Shown here: one piece after another, positions 3-21,250 of the stretch
How positions within the stretch are numbered: the stretch's first letter is position 1
How the letters are laid out: each line of letters begins with the position of its first letter
DNA from: Candidatus Multivoradales bacterium
Lineage (GTDB): Bacteria > Acidobacteriota > Thermoanaerobaculia > Multivoradales > JAHEKO01
Direction of reading: 5' to 3'
DNA: 64,000 bases
NCBI GenBank assembly: GCA_965248055.1
Contig: CBDFIJ010000004.1
Location: forward strand, 1,184,001-1,248,000
The notes under the pieces: model-generated
What the model was told of the DNA's origin: nothing
The model's input: the letters and a program-made list of their open reading frames with translations, nothing else
Database searches by the model: none
Made by a program: the position numbers and the translations under genes

Positions 3-233
3 GTGATCGGCTGTTTGGTGGGGGCGCTGCACCGTTGGCTTCCCGGCAATCGACCGAGTTGGTCGACAGCACTCGCTGGAGGTGCATTAGGAGCACTTCT
101 CGGGGGTCTGCTGGCAACCGTCCTGGGAATCGGTGGACTGGCAGTTTTCGATCCCCGTAGCGCGATCGTCGCCTTTCTTGCCGCGCTGATCATTCTTAAC
201 GGCCAGCGATTTTTTCTGGCCCGACGTCGATGA
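3..233 (+). CDS. GlsB/YeaQ/YmgE-like (transglycosylase-associated) small membrane protein, probably 5'-truncated by the window edge
   Basis: Gly-rich hydrophobic pattern GALGALLGGLLA...SAIVAFLAALIIL; stop overlaps next start (ATGA at 230-233). Confidence 0.6.
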   Translation: MIGCLVGALHRWLPGNRPSWSTALAGGALGALLGGLLATVLGIGGLAVFDPRSAIVAFLAALIILNGQRFFLARRR

Positions 234-3200
234 AGTTGCCGCTGGCATTGACTCGACCCAGTTTGATCGTCGGAATCACGCTGTTGCCGACACTGGTCAC
301 GGCCTTCGCTGGTATCGGTTGCCGGAGCGAGACAGATCCCACCGAGTCAGCCATTCTCGCCCGCTCGGGCTACGCACAGTTGGAGAACGAAGAGCCTGCA
401 GCCGCTGCAGAAACATTCGCCGAGTTGGTCGAACTCTTGCCTGCGGACCCTCTACCTCACGGTAATTTGGCACTCAGCTTGTTGCGCTCGGAACGTCCCG
501 AAGAAGCACTGGCGGCGATTCAAGTCGGTCTCAAACGATTTCCCGAGCACCCCAAATTGCTGGCGATTCTGGCCACGGTTCAACAATGGCTGGGCGAGTC
601 GGACGCCGCCCTGGCAGCATCAGCCCAAGCGGCAAACCTTGCGCCAGAGAGCCCGGAGATTCAATTCTCGCTGTATCGCATAGCCGATCAATTGAGCGCC
701 GAGCCCCAGCGCTCTCAGGCGCTCGATCGATTGGTGCAACTGCGACCCGAGAATCTGGTGGTGCTTCTCAGTCTGGGAAAGACCGCGCTCGCCCAAGCGG
801 ACGGCTCGGGAGACGCTCGCGCCCAAGCAACCCGCGCCTATCTGAGGACACGAGAACTCGCCTGGGACAACCCCGACGCGACAACCGTCTTGGAACGCCT
901 ACTCCAAGCACTGAGCGACAACGACCTAGACGCGGCCCGAACCCCATCGATCCAACTGGAAAACCTGCTCAAAATCACTCCTGCCTATAGACAGAGTCTG
1001 CGCGAACTCGACACCGGCATCCAGGGCATCCCGATTCGCAATCTGGACCTTGCCACCGATCCTTTGCCGGCTGCCCCTCCTCTAGCTCTTTCTTTCGATA
1101 CCCAACCGCTGCTTAGCGATCCTCAGTCTGGGGTCGCTGCGAGTTTTTTTTCAGGTGATACCCCCGATTGGGTCGCGCTCTCGCCGACCGGAGACCTCGC
1201 AACCATCCAAAACGAAGCCACACGCGCAGGAGAGAGTGGAAGTGGAGCTACGCTGTCTTTGGTCGACGTCAACAACGACGGCTTTGCCGACGCGATCGTT
1301 TCAGGATCGACGGGAGTTCAGATTTCCCTAGGAGATGGGAAAGGGCAGTTCGACGAGTGGTCCGCCTTCGGAATCGAAGTTGAGCAAGGTTCTGAAGTGG
1401 CGGCAATCGACTTCGACATTGAGGGAGATCTCGACTTGGCGGTAGCGACTGCCAGCGGAGTCCGGCTGTTTCAGAACACACTGACCGGACCTCTGGCTGA
1501 GATTACCGAGCATTCCAAGGGACTCGATGACGGGGTACCGGTGGGACGACTGCTTTCTGTGGATCTCGACAGCGACGGTGACCTTGACCTGGTTGGTTCT
1601 CAGCCGGGGAGAGTCGTTTGGTGGTCCAATCTGCGACAAGGTGAATTCCGTCTTGAGATCATCGCCCCCTTGGAGGCGACCGCGTTGGCAGTGGGAGACC
1701 TCGATAACGACCATCAATTCGAGCTGGTTGTTGCCGGTCCGGACACCATCGAAATCTTCAGCCACAGCGATCAGGGCTTCTTCTCGTCAGCGACAATGCC
1801 GGCTTCTGGGATTCGCGATCTGGCGATCGGCGATCTCGACGCGGACGGTCGATTTGACCTAGTGGCAGCCGGAGCAAATGGCGTCCAGTTGTGGCAAAAC
1901 ACCGACTCCGACTTTCTCGCTCCGATGTCCATATTCAGTGACCCCGCTTCAGCGCTGCTCTTGGTTGACGACGACCGCGACTGCGACCTCGACATCTTGG
2001 TCGCCGGAAAAACCGGTCTCAACCGCTTGGAGACCCAGACCGAGACCCAGTACCACTGCCTGCGCGTGCGATTGCGTGGACTCACCGAAGGCAGTTCCAA
2101 GAACAATGTGCTGGGCCTCGGCACCTTGGTCGAAGTTTCGGTCGGCGACCGTACCCTGACCGCAGAAGCCGCCGCTGAGGAAACCTTCTTCGGTCTGGGG
2201 GAAGGCTCGACGGCCGATTTGCTGCGTGTGGTTTGGACCAACGGGGTGCCGCAAAACCGGTTTCAACTCGCTGCGGATGCCACCGTAGTAGAAGAACAGT
2301 TGCTCAAAGGAAGTTGCCCATTTCTTTACGCTTGGGATGGCAGCCAATTCAGCTTCGTCACCGACCTGTTGTGGGGATCACCGATGGGATTACCTGTTGC
2401 GCCCGGCATGTGGGCGGAGGCCGATCCCAGCGAACTGGTTCACATTCCAGGAGCGGTGCCGGTGGATGGCACGCTCGACCTGCGCATCACCGAAGAGCTT
2501 TGGGAAGCAGCGTTCTTCGACCACCTGCGGTTATGGGTGGTCGAAGTCGAAGACGATCTTGAAGTAACCACCAGCCTCAAGATTCTGCCCGGCCAATCGA
2601 CCCCAGAGCTAGTACACGCCACCCGTCAAGTACGACCAGTGGTCGCCGCGACCGACGCCCAAGGAAGAGACGTTACGGCACAGCTCAGGAGCCGCGATCA
2701 GGTCTACGCCGACGGCTGGACCAAGAGCCCCTATCAAGGTGTGCCGGCCGAGCCGTGGACGATGGAGTTCGATCTTGGCGAACTTGGTGTCGAGGCGACC
2801 TCCGCTCCGTCGATTCGTTTACTCCTCGACGGTTGGATCTTCCCCTCGGACGCTAGCCTGAATCTGGCGGTCGGCCAACGCACCGATCTCAGCGTTCACG
2901 GACCGCGCCTGGAAATCCTCCATCAAGGTCAGTGGCAGCTTTTGGTTGACCAGGTTGGCTTCCCCGCAGGCAAGACCAAAACCATGGTGGTCGATCTACC
3001 TCCGCTGCCAGCGGGCGCTCACCGCCTACGCTTAGTCGCGGCCCAGTGGCTGTCTTTCGACCGGATCGCTTGGAGCAGCCAAACCGCCGACGACGAGGTG
3101 AAAGTCGTTCGACGCGCAACTCCCAATTCAGCCCAGCTTCGTTCGCGGGGCTTCTCGCGTTTGGTACGCCAAGCCCCCAACGCACCTCATACCTATGACT

Positions 3201-8419: not shown

Positions 8420-10828
8420 CTAGCTTTTGACCTTTGCCTCCAGTAACAACCGCCGGAATTCCGGCTCATCACGGAGGTTCGCCAAGTCAGAGTCATTCTC
8501 GGCATGGTGGATACCGTCGTAACCTGAGGCGAGAGCCCGTTTCAGCCAGTTGAGGGCTTGGTCGCTCTCTCCCAACATCGCGTAACCGCAGGCAATATTG
8601 TAAGCAGAGGTTCCCGGCCGGTATCCAAGATCGTGAGCCTTCTTAAATGATATAATCGCGTCCGCGAATTGTCGGGAATGGTGCTGACTCCACGCGAGGT
8701 TATTCCAACCACGACCGCTTTCCGGCTGGCGAGCGACCCAATCACTGTAGTACTCCACCGCGGGCGCCCACATTTCAGGTGAGTATTCGAGGTTATCGTT
8801 CTTCTCTTTCTTGTGATTCTCCCTCCACCGTCGCTGGCGAAAGCGATCGAGGTCGAGAGCATCAGCTAGCTCGGCAATCGGCTGAAAAGCAGGAGAACCC
8901 CGGAGGTTCGCGAGATCGGGATCCTGCCGCATGTGCTGAGGATTACTGAAGCCAGTCTCGACCGCTTGTCGGAGCGTGCTTGCCGCTTGGCTGATGTCCC
9001 CAGCCAGCGAGTAGGTGCAAGCCAGATTGTAGAGCGCAGAATCGCTATCTTCGCCCGAGGTGCGTGCGGCCTGGGTGAGCGCGTACTCAGCATCATCGAG
9101 AAGCCGTAGGCTCAAGAGATCAGAACCGACTTCGTACCAAGCGTCGCCGTCCGAAGAACTGTTCTCTCGCAGAACCTCGAAGTTCTCCACCGTACTTCTC
9201 AGCCGATAGTCCTTGAGCGGCCGCCGATGCTTGTCGCTCTCTAAGAAGTTCTCATCGACCAGCTTCTGAAATCGGTTGTCACTGCGAATAGGGTCGAAAT
9301 CACTGTCATGGGCAAGATGACGAGGATCATCCCAACCGGAGTCCAACGACCGTCGAAGTAGCTCTAGAGCAAGATCAGTATTGCCCGCCAACGAAGCACT
9401 GCAAGCCCCGTTGTAGTAGGAGGCCGTTGGCCGGTAGCCCGCTTCTGCAGATCCTCGATAGGCCTGGGCTGCCTCGGCAAACCGATTGTCTTCGTAGAAT
9501 TCCTGGCCTTGCTGGTATCCCTCATCAGAGGATTTGTAGGCTTGGTGACCGGCTTTCTCGCCGAGCCGTTTCTTCTGTTGGCGACGCTGGCTCTCTGTTT
9601 GCCGCGTGGGCGCCTTGCGGCCTCCAGGTGTGCTCGGAAGCGCTGAGTCGAGTCCGCCGAATACCAAACTGGCTCCGCCAAAGAAACTCGGCTCAAAGGA
9701 TCGATCCACCTCAGCTTGAGACGGCGTCGACAATTGAACTCCAGCAAAAGATGCAACCAGCACCACACTGACGACAGCCAAGAGGGCTATTGCAACGCGC
9801 CGAACCGGCGAGCGACGTTGGTTGGAGTCGAGGATGGCGACGAGACGAGACTTTAGATTTGATGGATTAAGCATAGCGAGAGACACCTCCGGTGATTCGT
9901 AGGGGTGGAACCCCTGGGCAAGAGTCAGCAGTTCTTTGGCGTAAGCAGAAGGTGCCTCGCCTGCGAGTAGCACGGTGTTGTCAGCAGCCCTCTCCGCTTC
10001 GCGGCGGGCCCAAAAATGAAGCCCCCAAACAAGGGGATGAAACCAGAAAACAACTGTCGCCAAGTGACCGACAAGAGTAGTCCAACCATCCCTGCGATGA
10101 AGGTGCGCGACCTCGTGCAACAGCACTCGGCGCAGCCGCGTCTCAGACCACGACCCACGATCAACCGGGAGCAAGACAAATTCATTGCCAAAGGTAGAAG
10201 CAAGAGGAATCGAAATCCTCTCGCTCTCCCTTAAACCGGGACGTTTGCGGTAACCGACCTGACGGCAAGCGCACTCAAGTACGCTCTGGGGCCGCGATTC
10301 AAGGATCTCCCGGCTGGTCCGGTACAGCGTGTGGAGCGCACCAAATTTGCGCCCTAGACGGACAAGAAGCAGCGCACTGACAACCACCCATGAAACCAGA
10401 ATGATCGTGCCAAGGGGCGCATCCCACCGCACTGAGCCGCGGCCTTCCGGCGATGAGCGAACTGCGGAGCCGGGCTCTGTCCCCACTTCGAGGCTCTTCG
10501 TCGGCACAACTCGATCGCGGTGCTTCGCAGCTCCACTAGTCGCAACAGTCGCCTTCGCCAAAGTCGGCCTGGCGGTGGAACTAAGGACAGCTCTGGCGCT
10601 GGAATTCGTTTTCGGAGGGAGCAGATTTGGACCATCAAACGATGGAACCCACAAGGTCAACAGCGGCAGAACCAAAACGCCAGCCAGCGTCAGGGCCAAC
10701 ACTAAATGCCTCTGTGCTGCGGAACATCGCCGTAACAAAGACCATAAGAGAAAAGGGCAACAACACCAGACAGTAACCTTCAGGAGAAGCACTGTGATGT
10801 CGAAAGGAAAGTCAGTGAAAGACATCAA
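8420..10828 (-). CDS. BlaR1/MecR1-like M56 metallopeptidase with C-terminal TPR-type repeats
   Basis: LLHEVAHLHRRD, FWFHPLVW, EAERAADN M56 motifs; three YNxAC...D(S/P)D(F/L)xx(I/L)R repeats; overlaps blaI-like gene (ATGA). Confidence 0.92.
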   Translation of the reverse strand: MMSFTDFPFDITVLLLKVTVWCCCPFLLWSLLRRCSAAQRHLVLALTLAGVLVLPLLTLWVPSFDGPNLLPPKTNSSARAVLSSTARPTLAKATVATSGAAKHRDRVVPTKSLEVGTEPGSAVRSSPEGRGSVRWDAPLGTIILVSWVVVSALLLVRLGRKFGALHTLYRTSREILESRPQSVLECACRQVGYRKRPGLRESERISIPLASTFGNEFVLLPVDRGSWSETRLRRVLLHEVAHLHRRDGWTTLVGHLATVVFWFHPLVWGLHFWARREAERAADNTVLLAGEAPSAYAKELLTLAQGFHPYESPEVSLAMLNPSNLKSRLVAILDSNQRRSPVRRVAIALLAVVSVVLVASFAGVQLSTPSQAEVDRSFEPSFFGGASLVFGGLDSALPSTPGGRKAPTRQTESQRRQQKKRLGEKAGHQAYKSSDEGYQQGQEFYEDNRFAEAAQAYRGSAEAGYRPTASYYNGACSASLAGNTDLALELLRRSLDSGWDDPRHLAHDSDFDPIRSDNRFQKLVDENFLESDKHRRPLKDYRLRSTVENFEVLRENSSSDGDAWYEVGSDLLSLRLLDDAEYALTQAARTSGEDSDSALYNLACTYSLAGDISQAASTLRQAVETGFSNPQHMRQDPDLANLRGSPAFQPIAELADALDLDRFRQRRWRENHKKEKNDNLEYSPEMWAPAVEYYSDWVARQPESGRGWNNLAWSQHHSRQFADAIISFKKAHDLGYRPGTSAYNIACGYAMLGESDQALNWLKRALASGYDGIHHAENDSDLANLRDEPEFRRLLLEAKVKS

Positions 10829-11211
10829 CGACCCTCTTTCCTTGCCCTCTCGATCAGCCCGGTGATTTCGTCAAGCTCCTCACGGGTCAGATCATCGGCG
10901 TTATCTCGGATAAGCGAACTGACGATCTGCGCCGGAGAAGCGTCGAAGAACGTCTTCAGAAGATGGTCCAGCGCTTTGGCGCGGGCTCGCCTTGGTTCGA
11001 CGGTTGGCTGATAAGTGTAGCGGTTCCCGTCAAATTCATGGGTCAAATGACCCTTCGACTCAAGAATTGACAGGGTACTGCGAACGGCGGAATAGCTGGG
11101 AGGATCCGGTAATTCCGCAAGCACCTCCGAAACGGTGGCCACTCCTTTGCGATAGATAATGTCCATAACCTCCCGCTCTCGGCGGCTGTACGGTTTATTG
11201 TCGTTCGCCAT
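10825..11211 (-). CDS. BlaI/MecI/CopY family transcriptional repressor
   Basis: SRREREVMDIIY...SYSAVRSTLSILESKGHL winged helix; directly upstream of the M56 gene. Confidence 0.95.
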   Translation of the reverse strand: MANDNKPYSRREREVMDIIYRKGVATVSEVLAELPDPPSYSAVRSTLSILESKGHLTHEFDGNRYTYQPTVEPRRARAKALDHLLKTFFDASPAQIVSSLIRDNADDLTREELDEITGLIERARKEGR

Positions 11212-11243
11212 TGGCAGGAGCTCGTAGCGTAGTCACGCGGAAG

Positions 11244-11297
11244 TGCTGATATTTCAGCATCTGTAGAAAAAATAGCACTCCCTTGGGCCACAGTCAA
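11244..11297 (-). promoter_or_regulatory. Putative sigma70 promoter and tandem operator for the blaI-like/M56 operon
   Basis: Minus strand TTGACT (11297-11292), 17 bp spacer, TGcTATTTT extended -10; palindrome TGCTGA-N4-TCAGCA (11244-11259) and a degenerate copy (11262-11277) overlapping the -10. Confidence 0.65.
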
Positions 11298-11417
11298 GAG
11301 ATGACTCGCATTCCGATCTCCCTCTGCCCACATTCATCATGGGTTGCCATGCAGCCTTCATTCGTTAAGAGGCCTTGAGCGTCATCGACTCACGATTGAC
11401 GAGTCTCTGCACCCTGA

Positions 11418-12239
11418 CTAGTTGCGCCACCTGGCACCGACTAGGAGCCACAGCCGCATGAGAATGCCTAGTCCAACCGTATCTTTGGAAGTTCCGCGAT
11501 CGAGTCGTTGATTTGCATCGTAGATGTAGCCAACGAACCTACTCCATGGCTTACTGACTGGCACCAGGTCGACAACTGCAGCGGGTCGAGCAGCCTTCCC
11601 AAATCTCCAATCCTCAGCCCTGGCCAGGACTAGCGACAATGCATGCGCCAGACCGTTCGTCAGCCGCTGCTCCCCGGTTTCTGAATCAACTACCTCGGCC
11701 ATTGCCCTAGCGATCGAATCCATCCTCGCCCGGTCAAGGCTGGACCTGATCGCCACGGCGCGCACCCGATCAAAGAACCCATCCCAGGCCTCGCGGTTCC
11801 AAGGCTTTCGCTCCTCTTCACTAGCAATTAGCAGGTAGGCCGGCTGTCCGCGGGGGTTGCGGTCTAGAGCTTCTTCCAGCTCGAACTGCAGGCGATTGAG
11901 CGCTGCCATGCGTTCGCCTTCGACTCCAGGCTGGAGTGCAAAGTCGATGCAGGTCCGGGTCAGGGTTAGGGCCGCTTGCAAGCGTCGCCGGGGTGCCGCG
12001 CCCACCAGCAGCAAAGCCGGAGCGAAGTCCCCCAGCCAAGCTCGGGTGACCTCGGCGCATAATCGCTCTGCTTGCTCCAGTGATAGATCATCTTCGGGCG
12101 CCTCGATGTGGTCGGCGAGACGCGCGTGACGACTCCCCAGCAAGCCACGATCACCCTCCCTCGGCGGTCGGTCGTCACACACGTCCGGTCCGGGGTGGCT
12201 GGCTAGTTTCCTGGCCCCTTTGAGTAGATTTTCGCGCAT
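11418..12239 (-). CDS. Degenerate squalene/phytoene synthase (HpnC-like) fold protein
   Basis: SLEQAERLCAEVTRAW..DF...RTCIDFALQ...ERMAALNRLQFELEEAL...P pattern parallels the HpnC N-terminal half, but the DDxxD motif is absent. Confidence 0.5.
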   Translation of the reverse strand: MRENLLKGARKLASHPGPDVCDDRPPREGDRGLLGSRHARLADHIEAPEDDLSLEQAERLCAEVTRAWLGDFAPALLLVGAAPRRRLQAALTLTRTCIDFALQPGVEGERMAALNRLQFELEEALDRNPRGQPAYLLIASEEERKPWNREAWDGFFDRVRAVAIRSSLDRARMDSIARAMAEVVDSETGEQRLTNGLAHALSLVLARAEDWRFGKAARPAAVVDLVPVSKPWSRFVGYIYDANQRLDRGTSKDTVGLGILMRLWLLVGARWRN

Positions 12240-12676
12240 GGTCGAGCGATTCTCCCACGGCCCGTGACTGTTTCCCCGCCATTCTGACCCGGCACGCTGC
12301 ACGAAACTTCATTCACGCTGGCAAGAGCTCTGGCGGGAATTTCGTTTCGCTTCTAGCGAGTCTGAAGTCGATGCTCGGCGACTTCAATACATTGCTTGTT
12401 TTTGCCGAGCGACTCGATCTTGAGAGCAGGCGAGGAGTCTCAGGAGGCGTTGAGTTGACTCTCCACCGGAGGGTCGCAGGATAGGTCCCGGCTCCCTTGC
12501 CCGGCTCCCGCCGGCTCGAGACGGGCACGCGCACCGCGGCGCCAATCCCCAGCTATCAGGCCACTTCATTTGTCGAGGACTCCCTTTGCCAACCACGACC
12601 TTGATAGGGTGGGGAAGGAGTCGGAGTGGCAGCACTACCGGCCAATCACCAGCCAAAAGAAAAAGGAAACTGCACC

Positions 12677-13588
12677 GTGTCGAGTACCAACGATTCTCGC
12701 GGATCTCTCTTACTCTGGGGAGTCATTCCCCTTGCTTTGCTCGGGCTGCTCCTAGCCTGGATTGTCACAACCAACCCGCTCGCCAATTTAGCTGGAACTG
12801 AAACGGGCGCAGGTGCCCGTCTGACACCGGCTTTTCTCTGGGGGTTTGGACTCATCGGTCTCTACGTCGGCGTCTTGCCGGTGATGCTGGGTTTGGTGTG
12901 GCGACCCTTCCTAATGCGCCTGGGACGCGCCGGACGCGACTTCGTGCTCGCACTGACGATTGGACTTCTGATCTACCTGGGCATAGACACCGTCGAGGAT
13001 GGGATCGAGACCATGGAAGAAGCGTTGTCCATGGTGACGACTCTGGGATTGTTCTTTGGCCTCGCGATTGCCGCCTATTTTGCCGTCGAAGCGTTCTCGC
13101 GCTGGGTGGCGCGACGCAGCGGCGGCGGAGCCGATTGGACCACAGCAATGCTGATCGCCCTGGGGATTGGACTGCACAACTTCGGCGAAGGTCTGGCGAT
13201 TGGCGCCGCCTACGCACTCGGCGAAATGGCCTTGGGAGCGATCCTGGTGGTGGGCTTTACCCTGCACAACACCACCGAAGGGCTGGCGATTGTCGCACCA
13301 CTTTCCAAAGAAACCGAAGTCGGAATCGGCAAACTGTTGCTCCTGGGATTGATCGCCGGAGGACCCACCATCCTCGGAGCCTGGCTCGGCGGCATGGTGG
13401 TCTCGCCAGTAACCGGCGGCATCGCCTTGGCACTGGGCGCCGGCGCCATCGCCCAAGTGGTGATCCAACTCCTTGGCTCGGTGTCGAAAGATCGTTCGTT
13501 GAAGAGCTTTCTGTCTTCGCCTGCAGTGATCGTCGGATTGGTCGTCGGCGCCGCGCTGATGTTCGTCACCGGAAAAATCGCCGGTTAA
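12677..13588 (+). CDS. ZIP (ZupT/GufA) family divalent metal transporter
   Basis: GIGLHNFGEGLAIG and GFTLHNTTEG motifs; AAGGA upstream of GTG 12677. Confidence 0.92.
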   Translation: MSSTNDSRGSLLLWGVIPLALLGLLLAWIVTTNPLANLAGTETGAGARLTPAFLWGFGLIGLYVGVLPVMLGLVWRPFLMRLGRAGRDFVLALTIGLLIYLGIDTVEDGIETMEEALSMVTTLGLFFGLAIAAYFAVEAFSRWVARRSGGGADWTTAMLIALGIGLHNFGEGLAIGAAYALGEMALGAILVVGFTLHNTTEGLAIVAPLSKETEVGIGKLLLLGLIAGGPTILGAWLGGMVVSPVTGGIALALGAGAIAQVVIQLLGSVSKDRSLKSFLSSPAVIVGLVVGAALMFVTGKIAG

Positions 13589-13627
13589 AGTAGCAAGCTA
13601 GTCGCCACCAAGCCATTATCTAGAGCC

Positions 13628-13972
13628 GGAGAGGTACCTCCCCCTCCCCTACAAAAGAGCTGGCGCAGACCCAACGTCTGCCGGTTGGCAGAGTCGATTC
13701 TCGACCCATCACAGATTGAGATCCTTCGACTGCGCTGCTACGCAGCTTCGCTCAGGATGACAACTGGAAGGCCTTGACGTAAGAGTGGGAGGGGGAAACT
13801 CCGCCCCCACAAGAGCAAAGGCCGTTCCGCGATCCTTGTCCTCGTAGGGCAGGCCTTTATGGCCTCCCGCTCTTGCCGATCCCTCTCCCCCGCCGGGATG
13901 ACGAAGTGCTGATATGCCACCGCCATTACCAACTTCATCCCCGAAGGGTGGGGGTTTGGTGGTCGGGGATCT
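13628..13972. repeat. Mixed REP-like cluster (GTCATCC...GGATCT and GTAG-type hairpins)
   Basis: GAGATCCTTCG...CTCAGGATGAC (13718-13761), CCGGGATGAC (~13893), TCATCCCCG...CGGGGATCT (~13935-13972), plus GTAGGG-type hairpins at 13628, 13787, 13844. Confidence 0.75.
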
Positions 13973-13995
13973 ATCACCGTCGAGATGGCGATCGG

Positions 13996-14706
13996 TTAGG
14001 CCTCGAATACCTCTCCAGGCTGCAAGGTCACGACCTCACAGTTCATTTCTCGCGCCACAACTTGCCGGGTGAATTCTTCAGGAGTCCCGGTAAGCAGTGG
14101 GAAGGTGCCCCAGTGAATCGGTACGACCTGACCAACCCCGAGCAAACGGCAAGCCTTGGCCGCCTGAACCGGATCCATGGTGAAGACGTCGCCGATCGGC
14201 AGGAATGCCAATTGGGGTCGATACAGCTCACGAATCAACTGCATGTCTGAAAATAGTGCCGTGTCCCCGGCGTGGTAGAAGTCAATGCCGTCTGGGTTAC
14301 GGATTGCGTAGCCCATCGCTGGGCCACCGTGAATAAAATGGCCACCGTCCAAAACACCAGAAGAATGAACCGCCTGGGTCATCGAGACCTTGAGGCCCAG
14401 CACCTCCAGTGTGCCCCCCAAGTTGCCGTGCATGCAATTCTCCACTCCCTGCTTCTCCAACCAATGGCTGAGTTCCAACGAAGCGACAACCACCGACGGT
14501 CGGTATTTCTTGGCGATCGCCACCGCATCATCGATGTGGTCGAAATGTCCATGAGTGATCAGCATCGCGTCGACCTTTTCGATTGCGCGCAACTTCTCGG
14601 GACAAGCGGGGTTGTTGTCCACCCAGGGATCGATCAACAGCGAGCGTCCGTCCGCTAATTCAACGCCGATCGTCGCGTGGCCGTAATAGGTAAATTTGGT
14701 TGTCAA
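13996..14706 (-). CDS. Metallo-beta-lactamase fold metal-dependent hydrolase (UPF0173-like)
   Basis: THGHFDH, AVHSS, YHAGDT, LPIGD, PIHWGTF motifs. Confidence 0.93.
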   Translation of the reverse strand: MTTKFTYYGHATIGVELADGRSLLIDPWVDNNPACPEKLRAIEKVDAMLITHGHFDHIDDAVAIAKKYRPSVVVASLELSHWLEKQGVENCMHGNLGGTLEVLGLKVSMTQAVHSSGVLDGGHFIHGGPAMGYAIRNPDGIDFYHAGDTALFSDMQLIRELYRPQLAFLPIGDVFTMDPVQAAKACRLLGVGQVVPIHWGTFPLLTGTPEEFTRQVVAREMNCEVVTLQPGEVFEA

Positions 14707-14876
14707 CTTTTCTCCTTATTGTTGTGATCAAAAGCCTAGCGTGAATCGACAGGAAGTTGAACTCGGCGTCGGTGAAACTTACCGACGCGTCGATGCGTAG
14801 TGAAATCCGAGCAAAGACATGAGGAAAAGCACCATGAACCCCACCAGAAGGTGCGCTTTTCTGTTACTCTTTTTCC

Positions 14877-15374
14877 ATGCGACGGGCCCTCTCCCATCGA
14901 CCCCGTAGCCGGAAGCTAAATCCCATCGTTTGGGGTCTTGTTCGTCTTTCGGCTTTGGTGTTAGTGGGATTCCACGTCCTGCTTCTTGGACGTCGTATCG
15001 CCGATCTGACCATCGCCGACCCTTGGGTTATTGTTCGCTGGTTGGCCACCGTTGCGCTGTTGTTCGTTGGTTGGCGCTATGTACGAAAAGGCGGCTCTCT
15101 GGTCGCCGGCCGCGGCGCACTGGCGTTTTGGATCGCGGTATTCCTGCTGCACGCGTTTGCCCTTCAGCCAGCGCCGGTACCTTTGGCAGAAAGCACGGTC
15201 AACGTTTGGAGTGTAGGGCTACTGCTGGTGCTTTCCTGGGTGGTTCTCAACGCCCTGCAGACTTCAGTCGAAGCACGTAGATACCATCAAACGGAAGACT
15301 TCTTCCTGCTGTTTCATACCGATCAGCTAATCCATTACTCGGGTCGTCCGCCTCCGATCTCCTTCTCCGCATAG
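14877..15374 (+). CDS. Membrane leader protein with C-terminal RPPP putative ribosome-arrest motif
   Basis: About four hydrophobic segments, ends HYSGRPPPISFSA; TGtTACTCT -10 box six nt before the ATG; upstream of a TonB-dependent receptor ORF. Confidence 0.75.
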   Translation: MRRALSHRPRSRKLNPIVWGLVRLSALVLVGFHVLLLGRRIADLTIADPWVIVRWLATVALLFVGWRYVRKGGSLVAGRGALAFWIAVFLLHAFALQPAPVPLAESTVNVWSVGLLLVLSWVVLNALQTSVEARRYHQTEDFFLLFHTDQLIHYSGRPPPISFSA

Positions 15375-15453
15375 ACGCGGAACCCCCACCCCAATCAGAC
15401 GAAGGTGTCACCCTCGCGGTGACTGACCGAACGATACTCTTTGGAAGGAGATC
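15356..15453 (+). promoter_or_regulatory. Anti-SD / SD pairing (putative translational attenuator)
   Basis: GATCTCCTTC (15356-15365) is the exact reverse complement of GAAGGAGATC (15444-15453), which contains the SD of ATG 15457; inner hairpin GTCACC/GGTGAC at 15407-15423. Confidence 0.7.
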
Positions 15454-15456
15454 AAC

Positions 15457-18400
15457 ATGCAGGGCACAACGCCTGCTCTCGACAACGTTTCCCAGTCCTC
15501 AATGCAGTCCCCACTGTTGGAAGCAGTGATGCATCTACCGATTCTCACTACGGTTGTTGCGACCGTATTTTGTCTGGTGTTGTTTCGCCGCTATCGCCAG
15601 CGCGGTGGCCTCCACTTGCTGTGGTGGGCGATCGGCATGGCCACCTACGGCCTTGGTACCCTGACCGAGTCGGCGACCACCCTGTTTGGCTGGAACTCCG
15701 ACGTCTTCAAGCTCTGGTATGTCTTCGGCGCCTTTCTCGGTGGCTATCCACTGGCACAAGGAAGCCTTTACTTGCTGGCTAGGAAACGCCGATTGGCCCA
15801 TCTGTCCGCCATCGTCTGCACCACCGCCATCATCATCGGCGCCATCGCCGTGGCGCTATCCCCTGTCACATTTCCAGGAGTTGACGCACGGCTGTCTGGA
15901 TCCGCTCTGAACTGGCAATGGATTCGCGCTATGACCCCATTTATCAATATCTACTCGGCAATCGTCCTCATTGGAGGTGCTCTGGTGTCCGCTTTTCGTT
16001 TTCGTACCACTCCCGACTTGCGCGGCCGTTACCTCGGCAACATCTTGATCGCTATCGGCGCTTTACTGCCCGGGATCGGCGGCACCATGACTCGCATGGG
16101 TCATGTAGAAGTGCTCTACGTAACCGAGCTGTTGGGTCTGTTGTTTATCTTTGCCGGCTATCGCAAATGCGTCGCCGCACCTCAGCCCGCGACCGAACCC
16201 AAGTCGGCGATAGCGTCAGTTACCGCTGTGCTACTTCTACTGATGAGTCTCGCGAGTCCGCAACTGCTGAGTGCGCAAACTAACGATACGGCTCCTCAAG
16301 GAGAAGGAACTCAGGAAACCGTCGACCAGGACCCTAGGTCGGATAGCGGCGACAACGTCTATTACGGAACCGTGACGGTGACCGCGACCGGCAACGAGTC
16401 CGATACCCATCAGGTCGCTCAACCGGTCACCGTGCTCAAAGATATCGACCTGCGGCTGGCCAACAACGCCGCCGACCTGCTGCGCTGGGAACCCGGAGTC
16501 GATGTTGACGGAGTGGGGGCAGTGCAGGTGCGTCCGGTCATTCGTGGCTTGCGCGGCCTGCGCGTGCTGTTCTTGGAGGACGGCCTGCGGATGAACAACT
16601 CGCGTCGCCAAACTGATTTCGGCGAGATCAGTGGTTTGGTGCCCAATGAGTTGGTCGACCGAATCGAAGTGGTGCGCGGCGCGGCTTCAGTGCTGTACGG
16701 TACCGACGCCATTGGTGGCGTAGTCAACATGATCACCCACCGGCCCAGTGTTGGCTCCGGCTGGGCCGGCAATCTAAGGGTTACCGGTGGCAGCGTCGAC
16801 GACTCGACCAAGGTCACTGCGAGCTTAGCGAAACGAAGCGAGCAGTCATCTTGGTCTAGCACCTTTGGCGTGCGTGATGTTTCGGACTACGAGGCGCCCG
16901 CCGGAACCTTTGGCGATATCAAACTGTTGGAAGACACCTCGGTGCTCGACACCGGGGTCGAGGACAACTTCTTCAAAACCATCTACTCCAGAGACTTGAA
17001 CAGCTCCCACAGCTTGATCCTTTCAGCGCGCGGCTACTCGGGAGAAAACAGCGGATTCGGCTTGGTCGAGCCGTCGCTTTTGGGAGACGACAGCTTTCGC
17101 ATTCGCATCCTCTATCCGGAGCAAGATTTTCAAAAGTTCGTCGCCACCCACCTAGGAACAGATCTCGGTTGGGCCGACACGCTGGAAACCAAGCTCTATA
17201 GCCAAAGCAACGAGCGCATCCTGGTCAACGACATCGGCATCAATATCGGGCCGATCTTTCCCGGCGCTCCCAACTCCTCTGTCGACGCGGACACCGTAAA
17301 CAACACCGATATGGATACCTGGGGCGTCCGCTCTGAAGCCGCCAAAGCAGCGGCCGGAGGGCTCTGGACCTACGGCGTCGAAGCATTCTTCGATGATTCC
17401 TTTAACACCGATTCGTCTGTGACTACGACCACCATTCGTGTCCCCTTTCCGCCTTTCGCGTTTGTCAGCCAAAGCACCGACAACATCGCCAATGCCCCCA
17501 ACGCCACTAACTCTTCAATCGGTGCTTTCGCCCAGTACGAGCGATTGATCGGGGACCGCGCCCATGTCAGTCTTGGCACTCGCTATCAGCAGGTCACGAC
17601 CCAAGCAGAACCGACACCAGATCTGGATGTCACCGGACTGGACTTCGACGATTCCCGTTGGGTCGGCGCTGCGACCCTGCGCTATCAGCTCCAGGACAAC
17701 CTGCAATTGGTCGGTTCGCTGGGAAGTTCCTTCCGCATGCCGAGCATCATCGAGCGCCTGTTCAACGGCCCGACCCCCGAAGGAGCTGGCTTTCAACTTC
17801 TAAACCCAAACCTCAAGTCGGAAACCGGTATCAACTACGACATCGGTCTCAAGTATCGGGGTCGGCGCACCTTTGCCGAGGTCACCTATTTCGAGAATCG
17901 CCTGTCCGACGGTATCTCCCAGCACTTCCTCAGCCCAGCCGACGTTGACGCCTTAGCGCAAGACTTGAAAACCGAAATTGCGCTACTGGGACCCAACGTA
18001 TTTGTGGTTCAGCAACGCAATATTGAAGAACTGACCTACACTGGGTTCGAGCTGGCGGGTGGAATCAACCTGGAAAGTGGAGTGACAGTGGGTGGCAACT
18101 TCTCGCTGCTCGACGCCGATCGCACCGACTCCGCCAACCCACCGACCGGCGAAAGCTACGGCAACAAGACCAACCTGTTCCTCCGCTACGCCCCAGCCAG
18201 CAAGCCGTACTATCTAGAATGGCGTATCCGTCACTCGCCGGAAGATGACTTCCCGCTGGCACCCAACCAAGCCCTGCCCCCAGCAGGCCTCAGACTGCCG
18301 TCTTTGACTGTGCAACAACTGGCCGCCGGTTGGACCTTCAGCGGTGAAGGTCGTCTCGGTCATCAACTCAACCTAGTGGTCGACAACCTGAGCGACGATC

Positions 18401-18563: not shown

Positions 18564-19178
18564 TCATTGAACTTTCTGCGCCGAGTCTAGAACCTGGGTT
18601 TGGTCGAGATAGCAATCTGGGTCGTCAGGGGTTTTTTCGCAAAATTCAGCCACCGCCTGGGACAAGTCAGATGACGCAATACGCTCTTTGTCTTTGAAGA
18701 CAGACAGCTTTGCAACCTCGCGGTTGAACGGGAGAATGATTGTCGTCTCGGCACTCTCCTCTATATCAACGAAGTCGCGATCTTCTTCGTCACTCCAAAC
18801 CAATGTCCAACGAGGGTCCCAAAGTGGAATCGAAACGAGGCTAACTCCCTGAACGTCTACTAGTTGTGCCGTGAGCATGGCGGGGTTCCCAATGTGATTG
18901 GGCGCCTCCCCGTAAAGAACCCTCGGGTTCGTGAGCGTTACAAGACCCTCGGCGGCTACGCGCATGTCAACGACCACCACTTTGGCAAAAGCCGTGGACG
19001 CAACCGCACTGGGGTCTTTGGGGCCAACACTCAAAGTGCCGCCATCAATCTGCTGCACAATTGCCGACTCCTGCGGCTGCTGCGCCACGATCCTGCTCTG
19101 ATCACCCTCCTCAGTATCAGAGCAGCCCAAAAGCACCAGCATGGGAATCCAAAGCCCGAATCGATTACACGCTTTCAT
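18564..19178 (-). CDS. Hypothetical lipoprotein
   Basis: MKACNRFGLWIPMLVLLG-C lipobox; GGAGAGG upstream of ATG 19178. Confidence 0.7.
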   Translation of the reverse strand: MKACNRFGLWIPMLVLLGCSDTEEGDQSRIVAQQPQESAIVQQIDGGTLSVGPKDPSAVASTAFAKVVVVDMRVAAEGLVTLTNPRVLYGEAPNHIGNPAMLTAQLVDVQGVSLVSIPLWDPRWTLVWSDEEDRDFVDIEESAETTIILPFNREVAKLSVFKDKERIASSDLSQAVAEFCEKTPDDPDCYLDQTQVLDSAQKVQ

Positions 19179-19225
19179 TGTTCTAACACCTCTCCAGTTT
19201 GCTGAACATCTGCTATACCTACTCG

Positions 19226-21250
19226 TCACGGTAGGGCGTCTATGACCGCCTGAATCCTGCGCTCGTCGGCAGCGCGCGGCACACGATTGTCAACCATGCG
19301 GTCGTTTTCGACATCTGCTGCCCCCGGCGCTGGCGCGTGATCAAGGCGAAAGAACTGACTCCCGCTACTGACACGCGTTGACGTAAACCCCAAGCACGAA
19401 CTGCGAAGACCACCGAGCGCGTCAGCCTGGCAAGCAGTCTGTGCTGCTGAACTACCAGCAGCTTGGGGACCATACAGATTCGGGTTGGTGCCGGTCTGAA
19501 AGTAGCCGCCATCGCAACAATATTCGTCCGCCAATCCGAACGGGCTGTGCCCGGTCTCATGCCGCACGGTATTTGTCGCCCCTGGTTCAGTACTGAAAAT
19601 ACCTCCACTGGCACAGTCACGCAAATTATCTGTGTGCAGCAACACTCCACTGTCCGAAAACGTGTAGTCGGTACTCCAGTTCGAAGGCGCAGTATGGCAG
19701 GGCGACCCGGCGGTAAAGCCATGCGCATCGCCTCGGTCCTGCGCGATCCAGAAGTTGAACCGCCCCTGATTACGCAGAAACAACTCATCTGACAAGAATG
19801 CCGTCTGGACCACGTCATGCACGTCGTCCGTGAAAGCCGTCACATTGGCGCTGCTGTAGTTGTCACTGTCAGGGATGAAAACTAAGTCCATTGCTTCGGC
19901 GGTTGCGCGGTGCCGCAACACCGGCACTGCCCGGCCGCGTGCAGGCGGTCCAATGATCGAACTACGGCTACCGGTGGTGGCGGATACACCTCGTTCTTCT
20001 GCATTGCACTGGTAACTAAAAGTCCCGTTGCTCGAAGCGTGAAGACGGATTTCGCAAGTCGTCGCATCGGTGCAGCTCTGAACATTGCCAGTACCACCCG
20101 CCGGCTGACGTAGCTCAATACGGTCGGCAACGACCGGGCGCATATTCGCATCGAGGGCATCAGCGGTGAATGTCACCGTGTCACCAGCTTGCGGCCAAAT
20201 CGGCGAATGCAGGCAACGCACGTAGAGGCGCGGACGATTATGGATCCGAATGCGCACCTGCATACGAGCCCTATCACTTTGATTGCCACTCACATCAATG
20301 CGTGAGCCTACATCGAGGATGTCGCCACACCTCCCAGTTGCCTCTCCAGTGATGTTGCAGGTGCTCGGATTCAGATCAAGTTGCAGTACCCGCCCAGCTC
20401 CTGGTTGCACGTCGACTGTGTCGTCGGGATTAAGAAAGCCGTCAGAATCCATGATTCGAATGTCGATCGGAATTGTTCTGCGACTCAGGTTCACCCAACG
20501 AGTAAAACGCCAGTAAGCAGCGACATCATCTTGGTTGCCAAACTGTGTGCTTTCGCCGCGCGACTCGTTGGATTGCTCGGTACCGTCGATACCGATTCGT
20601 CCATAAAAGTCAGCTGACGATCCACACCACCAAAAGGTGTCATCGACGCACTCGAGCGTGGTCAGCCGTTCGACCACGACCTCGACTTCACCGAGTCGTG
20701 CTGGGGTGACGTCAATTCGAAACCGTATTCTCGCTCGGTCGTCGCTCGTACCGCTCGACGTCAAAGTCGCTCCACACGCACCAGAGGCCCCGCCGCTTAT
20801 CGTGCAGCCGCCCAAATTCACACTCAGGTCCAGGTTCCTTCCACTACCGGAAGTGATGTCAACGTGGTCATCCCCGAACCGCAGCCCTCCGTCGGAATCC
20901 CATATTTCAATGCGGACGTTGATGTTGCTGGAAGACACCGCGCGTCGGAATGTCCAGTTCGGTGAAATATCCGCGCTATCGTCAATCGAACCACTCGAAA
21001 AAGACACACCGTCGATAACAACCTTCGAGTAGAAGTCCCCGGCCGAACCACACCACCACAGAGTTTCGTCAACACACTCGAGCTCTTCGACACGTTGAAT
21101 GGTCACTGTGACTTCGTCGTCGGCTGCCGCCATGGACGGAAAAGCTAACCCCCACAGGACAAGTGCCGTCCAAGCACGGTACCAAAGAACTCTTCTCAAG
21201 GCGCAAGACGGAAGTGGTTCTTTGCTCACTGCTTCATCCCTCAAAATCAA
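19226..21250 (-). CDS. Secreted M64-like zinc metallopeptidase with two N-terminal repeated beta (C2-like) domains
   Basis: Signal peptide ending AAA|D; duplicated LECVD(E/D)T(L/F)WWCGSxxDFY..IDG domain; MDLVFIPD and HETGHSPFGLADEY; exact start uncertain. Confidence 0.75.
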   Translation of the reverse strand: MILRDEAVSKEPLPSCALRRVLWYRAWTALVLWGLAFPSMAAADDEVTVTIQRVEELECVDETLWWCGSAGDFYSKVVIDGVSFSSGSIDDSADISPNWTFRRAVSSSNINVRIEIWDSDGGLRFGDDHVDITSGSGRNLDLSVNLGGCTISGGASGACGATLTSSGTSDDRARIRFRIDVTPARLGEVEVVVERLTTLECVDDTFWWCGSSADFYGRIGIDGTEQSNESRGESTQFGNQDDVAAYWRFTRWVNLSRRTIPIDIRIMDSDGFLNPDDTVDVQPGAGRVLQLDLNPSTCNITGEATGRCGDILDVGSRIDVSGNQSDRARMQVRIRIHNRPRLYVRCLHSPIWPQAGDTVTFTADALDANMRPVVADRIELRQPAGGTGNVQSCTDATTCEIRLHASSNGTFSYQCNAEERGVSATTGSRSSIIGPPARGRAVPVLRHRATAEAMDLVFIPDSDNYSSANVTAFTDDVHDVVQTAFLSDELFLRNQGRFNFWIAQDRGDAHGFTAGSPCHTAPSNWSTDYTFSDSGVLLHTDNLRDCASGGIFSTEPGATNTVRHETGHSPFGLADEYCCDGGYFQTGTNPNLYGPQAAGSSAAQTACQADALGGLRSSCLGFTSTRVSSGSQFFRLDHAPAPGAADVENDRMVDNRVPRAADERRIQAVIDALP

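Follow-up and report, generated by a model that had tools for sequence, protein, structure and literature searches.

A four-helix membrane leader with a conserved C-terminal R-x-P-P motif, a candidate arrest peptide ahead of a TonB receptor gene in Candidatus Multivoradales

A stretch of 64,000 nucleotides from Candidatus Multivoradales bacterium (assembly GCA_965248055.1, contig CBDFIJ010000004.1, positions 1,184,001 to 1,248,000), in the following called the window, contains an open reading frame (ORF) of 165 codons at 14877-15374. Judging from its sequence and its relatives, this ORF belongs to a real, conserved and unannotated family of probable arrest-peptide leaders. In the explanation that we favor, with a probability of roughly 0.6 for the whole, the encoded four-helix membrane protein arrests its own ribosome at a C-terminal R-(P/A/G)-P-P motif and so unmasks the Shine-Dalgarno (SD) element belonging to the following ORF, which encodes a TonB receptor. 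Its first part, that the leader is an arrest peptide, appears very probable, and control of the downstream ORF by the leader is likely. An earlier reading, made from the letters of the window and without database searches (the sequence-only reading), had proposed the same scheme; what stands of it is the leader with a conserved RAPP-class motif, and SD unmasking turned out to be too specific as a mechanism of the family.

Read directly, the leader ORF ends in HYSGRPPPISFSA ahead of its stop, with the HYSG-R-P-P-P-ISFSA end and the RPPP codons that the sequence-only reading had described. Pfam and NCBIfam hold no family for the protein, Pfam giving no match even at E <= 10, and its relatives, where the sources name them, are entered as 'hypothetical protein' and carry no Pfam domain. 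A word-indexed search retrieved four proteins about 49% identical to the leader, each with an RPPPISLSA end, and a whole-genome search found a match in 36 of 61 related genomes, among them 29 of the 36 genomes of the window's own family. A search of 1.84 billion proteins with the profile of an alignment of 38 members (A2, which also served for the invariant columns and the AlphaFold2 (AF2) model) matched 630 cluster representatives with E <= 1e-3, of which 565 reached E <= 1e-10 and 46 reached E <= 1e-30. The relatives fall in the class Thermoanaerobaculia ('Candidatus Multivoradales') of Acidobacteriota; more distant members come from Vicinamibacteria. When the phylum was sampled evenly, the leader had a match in only 18 of 401 genomes, and the family is therefore restricted to certain lineages. 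No description of it was found in the literature, where 'RAPP motif' combined with 'Acidobacteria' returned 0 papers; the supplementary lists of PMC12992588 may include RAPP-bearing members. Structure searches with the leader model gave no match at E <= 0.001 in the PDB (Foldseek) and a best Z of 7.4, corresponding to generic helices, in the VIA wide fold search. Five sequencing runs match 14700-16200; no RNA run is listed among them, and four come from one sample, probably the source of the assembly.

The motif was compared at 36 loci, namely the window and L021-L055, of which L021 belongs to the same genus. R-(P/A)-P-P lies within the last 14 residues of the leader at 34 of them, 24 times as RPPP and 10 times as RAPP; L052 has LPPP instead, and L027 has RASP. 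A census of the 149 best representatives of clusters at 50% identity found R-x-P-P in 145 (106 RPPP, 32 RAPP, 6 RGPP, 1 RQPP), the remaining four being two with LPPP, a truncated one and a different one; the tail between motif and stop measures 1-14 residues. Leaders were also present in 43 of 80 loci retrieved via a neighbouring seven-helix membrane (7TM) domain that is described below, with 22 RPPP, 18 RAPP, 1 RGPP, 1 RRPP and one leader that has no motif. In A2, whose columns are otherwise only 36% identical on average, P159 and P160 are invariant and R157 is at least 90% conserved. The motif positions use every one of the six Arg codons and of the four Pro codons, and the constraint therefore acts on the peptide; the conservation that the sequence-only reading had proposed as a check exists at the level of the amino acid, not of the codon. 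In L027 (G021:C12) the motif has decayed to RASP, the frame runs 31 residues further and no C-rich tract accompanies the stall site, so this leader may be non-functional.

Published work on arrest peptides describes closely similar preferences. In ApcA, ApdA and ApdP the Arg is irreplaceable, the exchange of Ala for Gly is fully permissive and that of Ala for Pro partially to nearly fully so, and random-library screens yielded RxPP with G, A, S or P as x (PMC12992588). Among XPPP sequences, RPPP stalls most strongly, both in vitro and in vivo (PMC4176338). At the variable position, 144 of the 145 representatives that bear the motif have A, G or P, and this substitution pattern matches the published arrest-permissive residues. 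The sequence characters of the RAPP-like arrest class are found in the leader: an R-x-P-P core (x = A or G, with P and S partly permissive) with the essential Arg and both Pro, located near the C-terminus of a small membrane protein that has its putative regulated gene downstream on the same strand. By analogy with the toeprints of RAPP peptides in PMC12992588, the predicted stall register assigns Pro159 (15351-15353) to the P site and Pro160 (15354-15356) to the A site.

In SecM-secA and MifM-yidC2, arrest of the ribosome opens a stem that sequesters the SD downstream. The window offers the same arrangement, with an SD that pairs with a strand inside the predicted stalled footprint, as is characteristic of SD unmasking of the SecM/MifM/CutF type. 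The sequence GATCTCCTTC, which begins at the last motif nucleotide, is the exact reverse complement of GAAGGAGATC, which bears an AGGAG 6 nt before ATG 15457; both this complementarity and the geometry, in which a ribosome at RPPP would cover the anti-SD strand, had been recognized from the sequence alone and hold in the predicted register. Within 14690-15470 no other inverted repeat is as long as that of the two arms (10 nt with 100% complementarity, separated by 78 nt). Composition-preserving shuffles of both the 30-nt stall zone and the 21-nt SD zone produced a perfect complement of at least 10 nt between them in 4 of 20,000 cases, shuffling of the stall zone alone did so in 6 of 20,000, and among 16 GGAG..ATG sites on the plus strand of the window ATG 15457 is the only one with such a complement within 115 nt upstream. 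The duplex of the two zones comprises 11 pairs including one G-U (-18.3 kcal/mol); with the stall zones of the other 34 loci the SD of the window reaches a mean of -8.4 kcal/mol, and none is better than its own. In the minimum free energy fold of 15340-15470 (-43.2 kcal/mol) the arms are paired. The unpaired probability of the SD zone rises from 0.03 in the free RNA to 0.41 when the stall footprint (Pro159 in the P site) is held open, and 74-78% of SD-zone pairing goes to the 40-nt stall zone, none to two upstream control zones. The hairpin nested between the arms (GTCAC/GTGAC) is present as well, at 15406-15422 and thus one base from the 15407-15423 first given for it. An Rfam search of 14400-15900 (evalue mode) found no family, and a terminator and promoter scan detected no intrinsic terminator in 15375-15456 and no sigma-70-like promoter. 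As output in this genome we give SD unmasking somewhat better than even odds.

In the relatives, the region between the leader and the next gene is long throughout (82-207 nt at all 36 loci). At least 50% of SD pairing is directed to the stall zone at 10 of 35 loci, a share that two control zones reach at 1 of 35 and 0 of 35 loci. The pairing arises from different sequences: L032 has 12 contiguous pairs, L023, L035, L037, L049 and L054 show extended pairing, and L021 carries its anti-SD, GGUUCUCC, just 5' of the motif. Over the loci, own pairs of stall zone and SD reach a mean duplex energy of -13.8 kcal/mol and cross pairs -12.5 kcal/mol (permutation p = 0.0014, which overstates the evidence because the loci are related). 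Several further points weigh against unmasking as a general mechanism. Some of the complementarity comes free, as the cross-locus mean indicates, because Pro codons are C-rich and SDs G-rich; the pairing is absent or weak in about two thirds of the relatives, an accessibility gain above 0.15 is reached at 6 of 36 loci only, and the SD of several loci has another partner, either coding sequence lying further upstream or the intergenic region. In the window itself, the fold of the whole segment pairs the arms as had been expected and is otherwise unexceptional (z = -1.82; 7 of 200 shuffles as stable). Close relatives for a comparison of the stem were sought in genome contigs, where none was found, and in metagenome contigs, where one distant locus (L137) was found. 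Predicted SD unmasking is thus well supported in the window and recurrent, not universal, and since the pairing occurs in about one third of the relatives it represents a lineage-specific output rather than the mechanism that defines the family. An ermC-like relay of four segments, seen by eye in L022 and L031, two loci that lack direct pairing, is unsupported, as the constrained partition function changed from 0.45 to 0.44 for L031.

Alternatively, the same arrest peptide might act mainly on transcription: the stall would hide a Rho-loading tract and so let transcription continue into the receptor gene, upon release Rho would terminate in the intergenic region, and the SD hairpin would be a secondary, lineage-specific layer. 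The C-minus-G content of the 60-nt tract at the stall site, 0.28 in the window, is in the top 5% of windows of the approximately 8-kb locus at 33 of the 36 loci and in the top 1% at 22, although the best of 51 overlapping windows was taken and the rank is therefore inflated. One of the three loci beyond the top 5% is L027, which has by far the weakest tract. Moreover, the genome encodes Rho (711 bits), long intergenic regions are universal, the one in the window has no intrinsic terminator, and in CruR the rut site has been located to a C>G bubble (PMC9426467). More loci would accordingly fit a CruR-like Rho/rut mechanism than SD unmasking. However, Pro, Ser, Ala and Leu codons alone make the tract C-rich, and the nearly complete masking of the SD in the window would need an explanation of its own. 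We regard this transcriptional output as a serious possibility, clearly less probable than the unmasking of the SD in this genome.

That the leader is no leader at all, and instead an ordinary small membrane subunit of an uptake system, is unlikely. The R-x-P-P would then be a structural or binding motif, and the hairpin would merely serve translational coupling without any programmed arrest. Such a protein would account for 165 residues and a well-conserved three-helix core, which exceed classical leaders in size and conservation, and any ribosome reaching the stop five codons past the motif would open the stem too. The motif counts in the genome's frames of at least 200 aa cut both ways: RPPP shows no depletion (15 observed, 14.2 expected from composition), whereas RAPP (5 observed, 26.1 expected) and RGPP (5 observed, 22.2 expected) are about five-fold depleted, in agreement with published avoidance. 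An ordinary subunit would not, however, be expected to keep arrest-permissive residues at the variable position almost without exception, nor a motif that is always 1-14 residues from the stop in a cytoplasmic C-terminus whose tail past the motif is not conserved, and the long intergenic regions disfavor simple coupling.

The protein itself is built as had been read from its sequence, with four helices in the AF2 model (16-43, 49-70, 79-95 and 110-155; mean pLDDT, the predicted local distance difference test, 75.8). The two His residues noted in membrane helices, in VGFHVLL (H33) and FLLHAFA (H92), proved invariant in A2 together with two Trp. The N-terminus and the loop RYVRKGGSLVAGRG are strongly positive, and the positive-inside rule therefore predicts an N-in, C-in topology, which would place H33 and H92 about 5 residues from the periplasmic ends of transmembrane helices (TM) 1 and 3. 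The leader lacks CxxC and any other Cys; the family has a mean of 0.9 Cys per protein and no conserved Cys column. TM4 ends 32 residues ahead of Arg157, and in the family the distance from the end of the last hydrophobic segment to the Arg has a median of 32 (interquartile range 29-36, n = 139). As 32 residues approximate the length of the exit tunnel, TM4 should just have come out of it by the time the ribosome arrives at the motif. In force profiles of SecM-type arrests, the strongest pull from an inserting hydrophobic segment is seen at a spacing of about 32 residues. This family-wide spacing would also suit a leader that monitors membrane insertion by Sec or YidC in the manner of MifM, SecM and VemP, the insertion of TM4 releasing the stall and poor insertion raising the receptor operon. 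RAPP- and RAGP-type arrest peptides are indeed described as released by the pulling force of the localisation machinery (PMC12992588). Yet the downstream genes encode a TonB receptor with or without the 7TM domain, not Sec or YidC components, and the invariant His/Trp set in TM1-3 would be superfluous for a pure monitor, which makes this role improbable, more so than that of an ordinary subunit.

The downstream ORF (1008 aa) had been taken for a receptor gene, and it does contain Plug and a TonB barrel; its first 240 or so residues, however, form a polytopic membrane domain, so that it is not a plain receptor. The 7TM domain (AF2 pLDDT 85.5) matches no Pfam or NCBIfam family and is followed by the signal-peptide-like segment KSAIASVTAVLLLLMSLASPQLLSAQ (ending LLSA-Q), and the DNA at the junction of domain and receptor contains no stop and no internal SD. 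A receptor ortholog with 44-74% identity follows the leader at 34 of the 36 loci, the other two loci ending before it, and the gene order leader, (membrane domain), TonB receptor is therefore conserved, as the sequence-only reading had asked to be checked. The 7TM domain stands between leader and receptor at 25 of the 36 loci, fused in frame in 14, separate in nine (three by a single in-frame stop) and not assignable in two; at 11 of 36 the leader directly precedes the receptor. In nine of ten tested genomes of the latter kind, seven of the nine being at least 96% complete, the domain was found nowhere in the genome, so that the constant partner of the leader is the receptor. Product feedback, in which the 7TM domain would end the stall by binding to the nascent leader within the membrane, is hence very improbable, even though the two are polytopic inner-membrane proteins encoded side by side at most loci, the more so as Gemmatimonadota-type loci have the domain after the receptor and no leader was found in them.

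The best NCBIfam match of the 1008-aa ORF is the TonB-hemin family TIGR01785, with 205.7 bits and thus below the cut-off of 316.85. Heme receptors carry an FRAP/NPNL box with a heme-ligand His. In the receptor studied here FRMP759 and NPNL783 are present and no His lies between them, and assignment as a heme/hemoglobin receptor is therefore unsupported. Other conserved neighbours were likewise set aside as a clue to the substrate, since none is common to more than 7 of the 36 loci; those seen are unrelated (radical SAM, Rce1-like, TerC, ABC ATPase).

From the sequence features, conservation, gene order and predicted RNA pairing laid out above, we infer the following course of events. The leader, an N-in, C-in protein of the inner membrane, would be inserted co-translationally, and its ribosome would arrest at R-P-P/P in the register given above. 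The stalled ribosome would cover the anti-SD strand that is otherwise paired with the SD of ATG 15457; the AGGAG core would be freed and the ORF for 7TM domain and TonB receptor initiated while the stall lasts. The ribosome might also hide the C-rich Rho-loading tract, as in CruR. Release would most likely be brought about by a pulling force on the nascent chain, exerted as TM4 inserts or packs against TM1-3, and the invariant His/Trp site in TM1-3 would be the likely point at which a signal, probably the substrate of the receptor, modulates it. After release, translation would terminate five codons on, the 10-11-bp stem would re-form, the SD would be masked again and Rho might load. With an uptake receptor as target, substrate would be expected to cause release and switch expression off, as in CruR. 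The identity of the sensing site is the most tentative element. It is possible, though improbable, that a ligand is sensed through the pair H33/H92; equally tentative is a co-translational sensor in which the nascent TM1-3 bind the substrate of the receptor from the periplasmic leaflet via His33 and His92, flanked by Trp55 and Trp85, and the packing of TM4 releases the arrest. A metal, a metal chelate or a tetrapyrrole would then be candidate substrates; the sequence-only reading had put forward a possible heme or metal sensor. Such a sensor would couple the periplasmic substrate level directly to the synthesis of an outer-membrane receptor without a transcription factor, the same stall being read out by SD unmasking or by Rho, depending on the lineage.

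Several observations on the proteins speak against this explanation. The spacing from H92 to the Arg is variable (63-84, median 77), whereas the sensor-to-motif distance of CruR is fixed at 45+/-2. The approximately 20 residues preceding the motif are weakly conserved, with Gly at -8 in 50%, Leu at -3 in 58% and one of Pro, Ser, Ala or Cys at -1 in 93%. Unlike RAPP and RGPP, RPPP is not avoided in long frames of this genome, and RPPP alone may therefore be handled well by elongation factor P (EF-P), which the genome encodes. Finally, an alignment of 26 receptor orthologs contains no conserved Cys or Met and a single invariant His, H969.

Table 1. Positions of the leader, its predicted regulatory elements and the downstream ORF in the window.
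Feature	Position (nt)	Residues (aa)	Strand	Basis or remark
Leader gene, 165 aa	14877..15374		+	ORF list (ATG start), homologs, AF2; ends GRPPPISFSA and stop
Conserved sensor-like core, TM1-TM3	14922..15161	16-95	+	A2 alignment, AF2 helices
Invariant H33	14973-14975	33	+	38-sequence A2
Invariant W55	15039-15041	55	+	38-sequence A2
Invariant W85	15129-15131	85	+	38-sequence A2
Invariant H92	15150-15152	92	+	38-sequence A2
TM4, hydrophobic, poorly conserved	15198..15257	108-127	+	ends 32 residues ahead of Arg157
C-rich, G-poor 60-nt tract, possible rut-like Rho-loading region	15344..15403		+	C-G = 0.28; 0.1% of other locus windows reach this
R-P-P-P codons	15345..15356	157-160	+	Arg 15345-15347, three Pro 15348-15356; sequence and conservation
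Anti-SD arm GATCTCCTTC	15356..15365		+	within predicted footprint of ribosome stalled at 15351
Leader stop codon TAG	15372..15374		+	five codons past RPPP motif
Intergenic region, 82 nt	15375..15456		+	inner hairpin GTCAC/GTGAC at 15406-15422
SD arm GAAGGAGATC	15444..15453		+	AGGAG core 15446-15450; SD of ATG 15457
Putative regulated ORF, 1008 aa	15457..18483		+	7TM domain, signal-peptide-like segment, Plug, TonB barrel
7-helix membrane domain		~19-240 of 1008-aa ORF	+	AF2 pLDDT 85.5; no Pfam/NCBIfam family
Signal-peptide-like segment KSAIASVTAVLLLLMSLASPQLLSAQ	16201-16278	249-274	+	sequence (...LLSA-Q)
Plug	16411-16722	319-422	+	Pfam
TonB barrel	17074-18390	540-978	+	Pfam

The 7TM domain is very conserved, with 67% column identity and many invariant polar residues, and has 288 relatives in genome contigs of Acidobacteriota, Gemmatimonadota, Rhodothermales, Bacteroidota, Verrucomicrobiota and Myxococcota. 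Structure searches returned weak rows resembling G-protein-coupled receptors only (Foldseek, E about 0.01) and a Z of 14.5 that lies within the range expected of any helical bundle (VIA), and the Atlas contained 'hypothetical' clusters only. In six loci (L023, L024, L030, L033, L040 and L048) the gene of the domain apparently starts with TTG, preceded by GGAG or AGGAG at 5-8 nt, and this start is conserved among several relatives. At L043 (G031:C55) only a remnant of the domain is fused to the receptor; its first helix is linked to the region around aa 193-239, which points to a deletion within the domain. The reversed order, with the receptor gene ahead of the 7TM gene, is found in Gemmatimonadota-type loci (L078, L093, L107, L109, L117, L120-L124, L127 and L130-L135). 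The leader family was not found there; 12 of 18 such loci have no frame ending in RxPP or PPP within 600 nt upstream of the receptor, and the frames in the other six look like chance.

Around the leader, the window encodes a 'Penicillinase_R' repressor of the BlaI/CopY type (10825-11211, minus strand), a weakly ZIP-like transporter (12626-13588, plus strand), a protein of the metallo-beta-lactamase (MBL) fold that is divergent from the leader (13996-14706, minus strand) and, beyond the receptor, a large secreted protein that weakly matches M64 peptidases (19226-21250, minus strand). None of the neighbours in 10825-14706 and 18564-21250 is conserved beside the leader in the relatives. The 170-nt gap after the divergent gene contains a perfect 8-nt inverted repeat, GCGTCGGT / ACCGACGC (14766-14788, 7-nt spacer), about 90 nt upstream of the leader ATG, which could be an operator or a hairpin of the 5' untranslated region. 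Outside the window, the same genome holds a second candidate arrest leader of CruR-like build (G000:C4:2657652-2658128, minus strand; L136:2853-3329, minus strand). It has a signal-like N-terminus, a CLFC (CXXC) followed after 43 residues by GRAPPVRS and the stop, and a TonB receptor ORF about 90 nt further on; it has no match to DUF2946 of Pfam at E <= 10.

Few arrest peptides are known to sense anything besides the secretion machinery, and CruR and CutF (DUF2946, copper) are the only ones studied ahead of genes for metal uptake or detoxification. New here is a family, large (565 clusters at E <= 1e-10) and so far unannotated, that has a polytopic His/Trp core in place of a Cys motif. It uses RPPP, RAPP and RGPP interchangeably and precedes an as yet uncharacterised TonB receptor in Acidobacteriota; hardly any gene regulation in this phylum is known from experiments. 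The members of the family form a natural series of EF-P-sensitive (RPPP) and EF-P-resistant (RAPP/RGPP) cores in one context, could serve as a test case for force release via a late transmembrane helix and allow a natural comparison of two possible read-outs of one stall, SD unmasking and Rho. Annotation would benefit as well, since such genes are currently 'hypothetical' or missed.

Among known systems, CruR of Bordetella pertussis (Bp2923, DUF2946) offers the closest gene context. It carries RAPP three residues from its end, precedes the TonB transporter BfrG, acts via Rho and senses Cu by a CXXC, as described in PMC9426467, and its arrest in vitro is reported in PMC12992588. Like CruR, the leader is the first gene ahead of a TonB receptor, has a RAPP-class motif a few residues from the C-terminus and a long structured intergenic region, shows a C>G tract near its 3' end and is targeted to the membrane by its N-terminal part. 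Unlike CruR, it has no match to PF11162, no Cys and no CXXC, four transmembrane helices instead of one signal or transmembrane segment, and a long and variable distance from the putative sensor to the motif. RPPP, moreover, is the form of the motif in about 70% of the family, and where CruR acts via Rho, the stall site in the window is predicted to mask the SD. With PF11162, a six-frame search of the whole genome yielded no match above the cut-off and none at the leader locus. Membership in the DUF2946/CruR-CutF family was therefore rejected, given the missing Pfam match, the absence of CXXC or CXXXC and the lack of a fixed spacing of about 45 residues; that the leader has no CxxC had been noted from its sequence alone.

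The output proposed for the window resembles that of CutF, a DUF2946 protein encoded upstream of cutO in Rhodobacter capsulatus, in which, according to the preprint 10.1101/2025.02.05.636593, a stall at PPP melts a stem-loop over the next ribosome-binding site (RBS). In both cases a C-terminal PPP stall of a membrane-targeted nascent chain would open the RBS of the next gene, and CutF is described as sensing an extracytoplasmic ligand co-translationally. As the same source presents it, however, CutF is secreted, has a CXXXC and controls a multicopper oxidase, and its ligand promotes stalling, the opposite of the sign predicted for the window leader. The preprint also cites SecA as regulated by stalling. 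With SecM-secA, MifM-yidC2 and ApdA/ApdP, the leader shares the RAPP-like core with its essential Arg, the third residue being assigned to the P site and the fourth to the A site (PMC12992588). The targets of these systems are Sec or YidC factors and their sensor is the targeting signal itself, whereas the window leader precedes a TonB receptor and possesses a conserved His/Trp membrane core.

In architecture, the nearest counterparts are SLIV_18480, SLIV_33595 and SLIV_33605 of Streptomyces lividans, RAPP/RGPP peptides with four transmembrane segments whose arrest in vitro and in vivo is reported in PMC12992588. They agree with the leader, compared by description only, in four predicted transmembrane segments, a C-terminal RAPP or RGPP, a conserved His in one of them and downstream genes that are metal-related or regulatory; they differ in their origin from Actinobacteria and in the genes that follow, a metal-related gene after SLIV_18480 and ECF (extracytoplasmic function) sigma factors after SLIV_33595 and SLIV_33605. 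The survey of upstream ORFs with RAPP or RGPP in the same paper has TonB receptors among the downstream genes and signal sequences in nearly all products; it did not search for RPPP, which is absent from its main text. Polytopic RAPP leaders are thus already a known kind from Streptomyces, and by analogy the leader in the window would work like CruR, CutF and SecM, outside the DUF2946 family.

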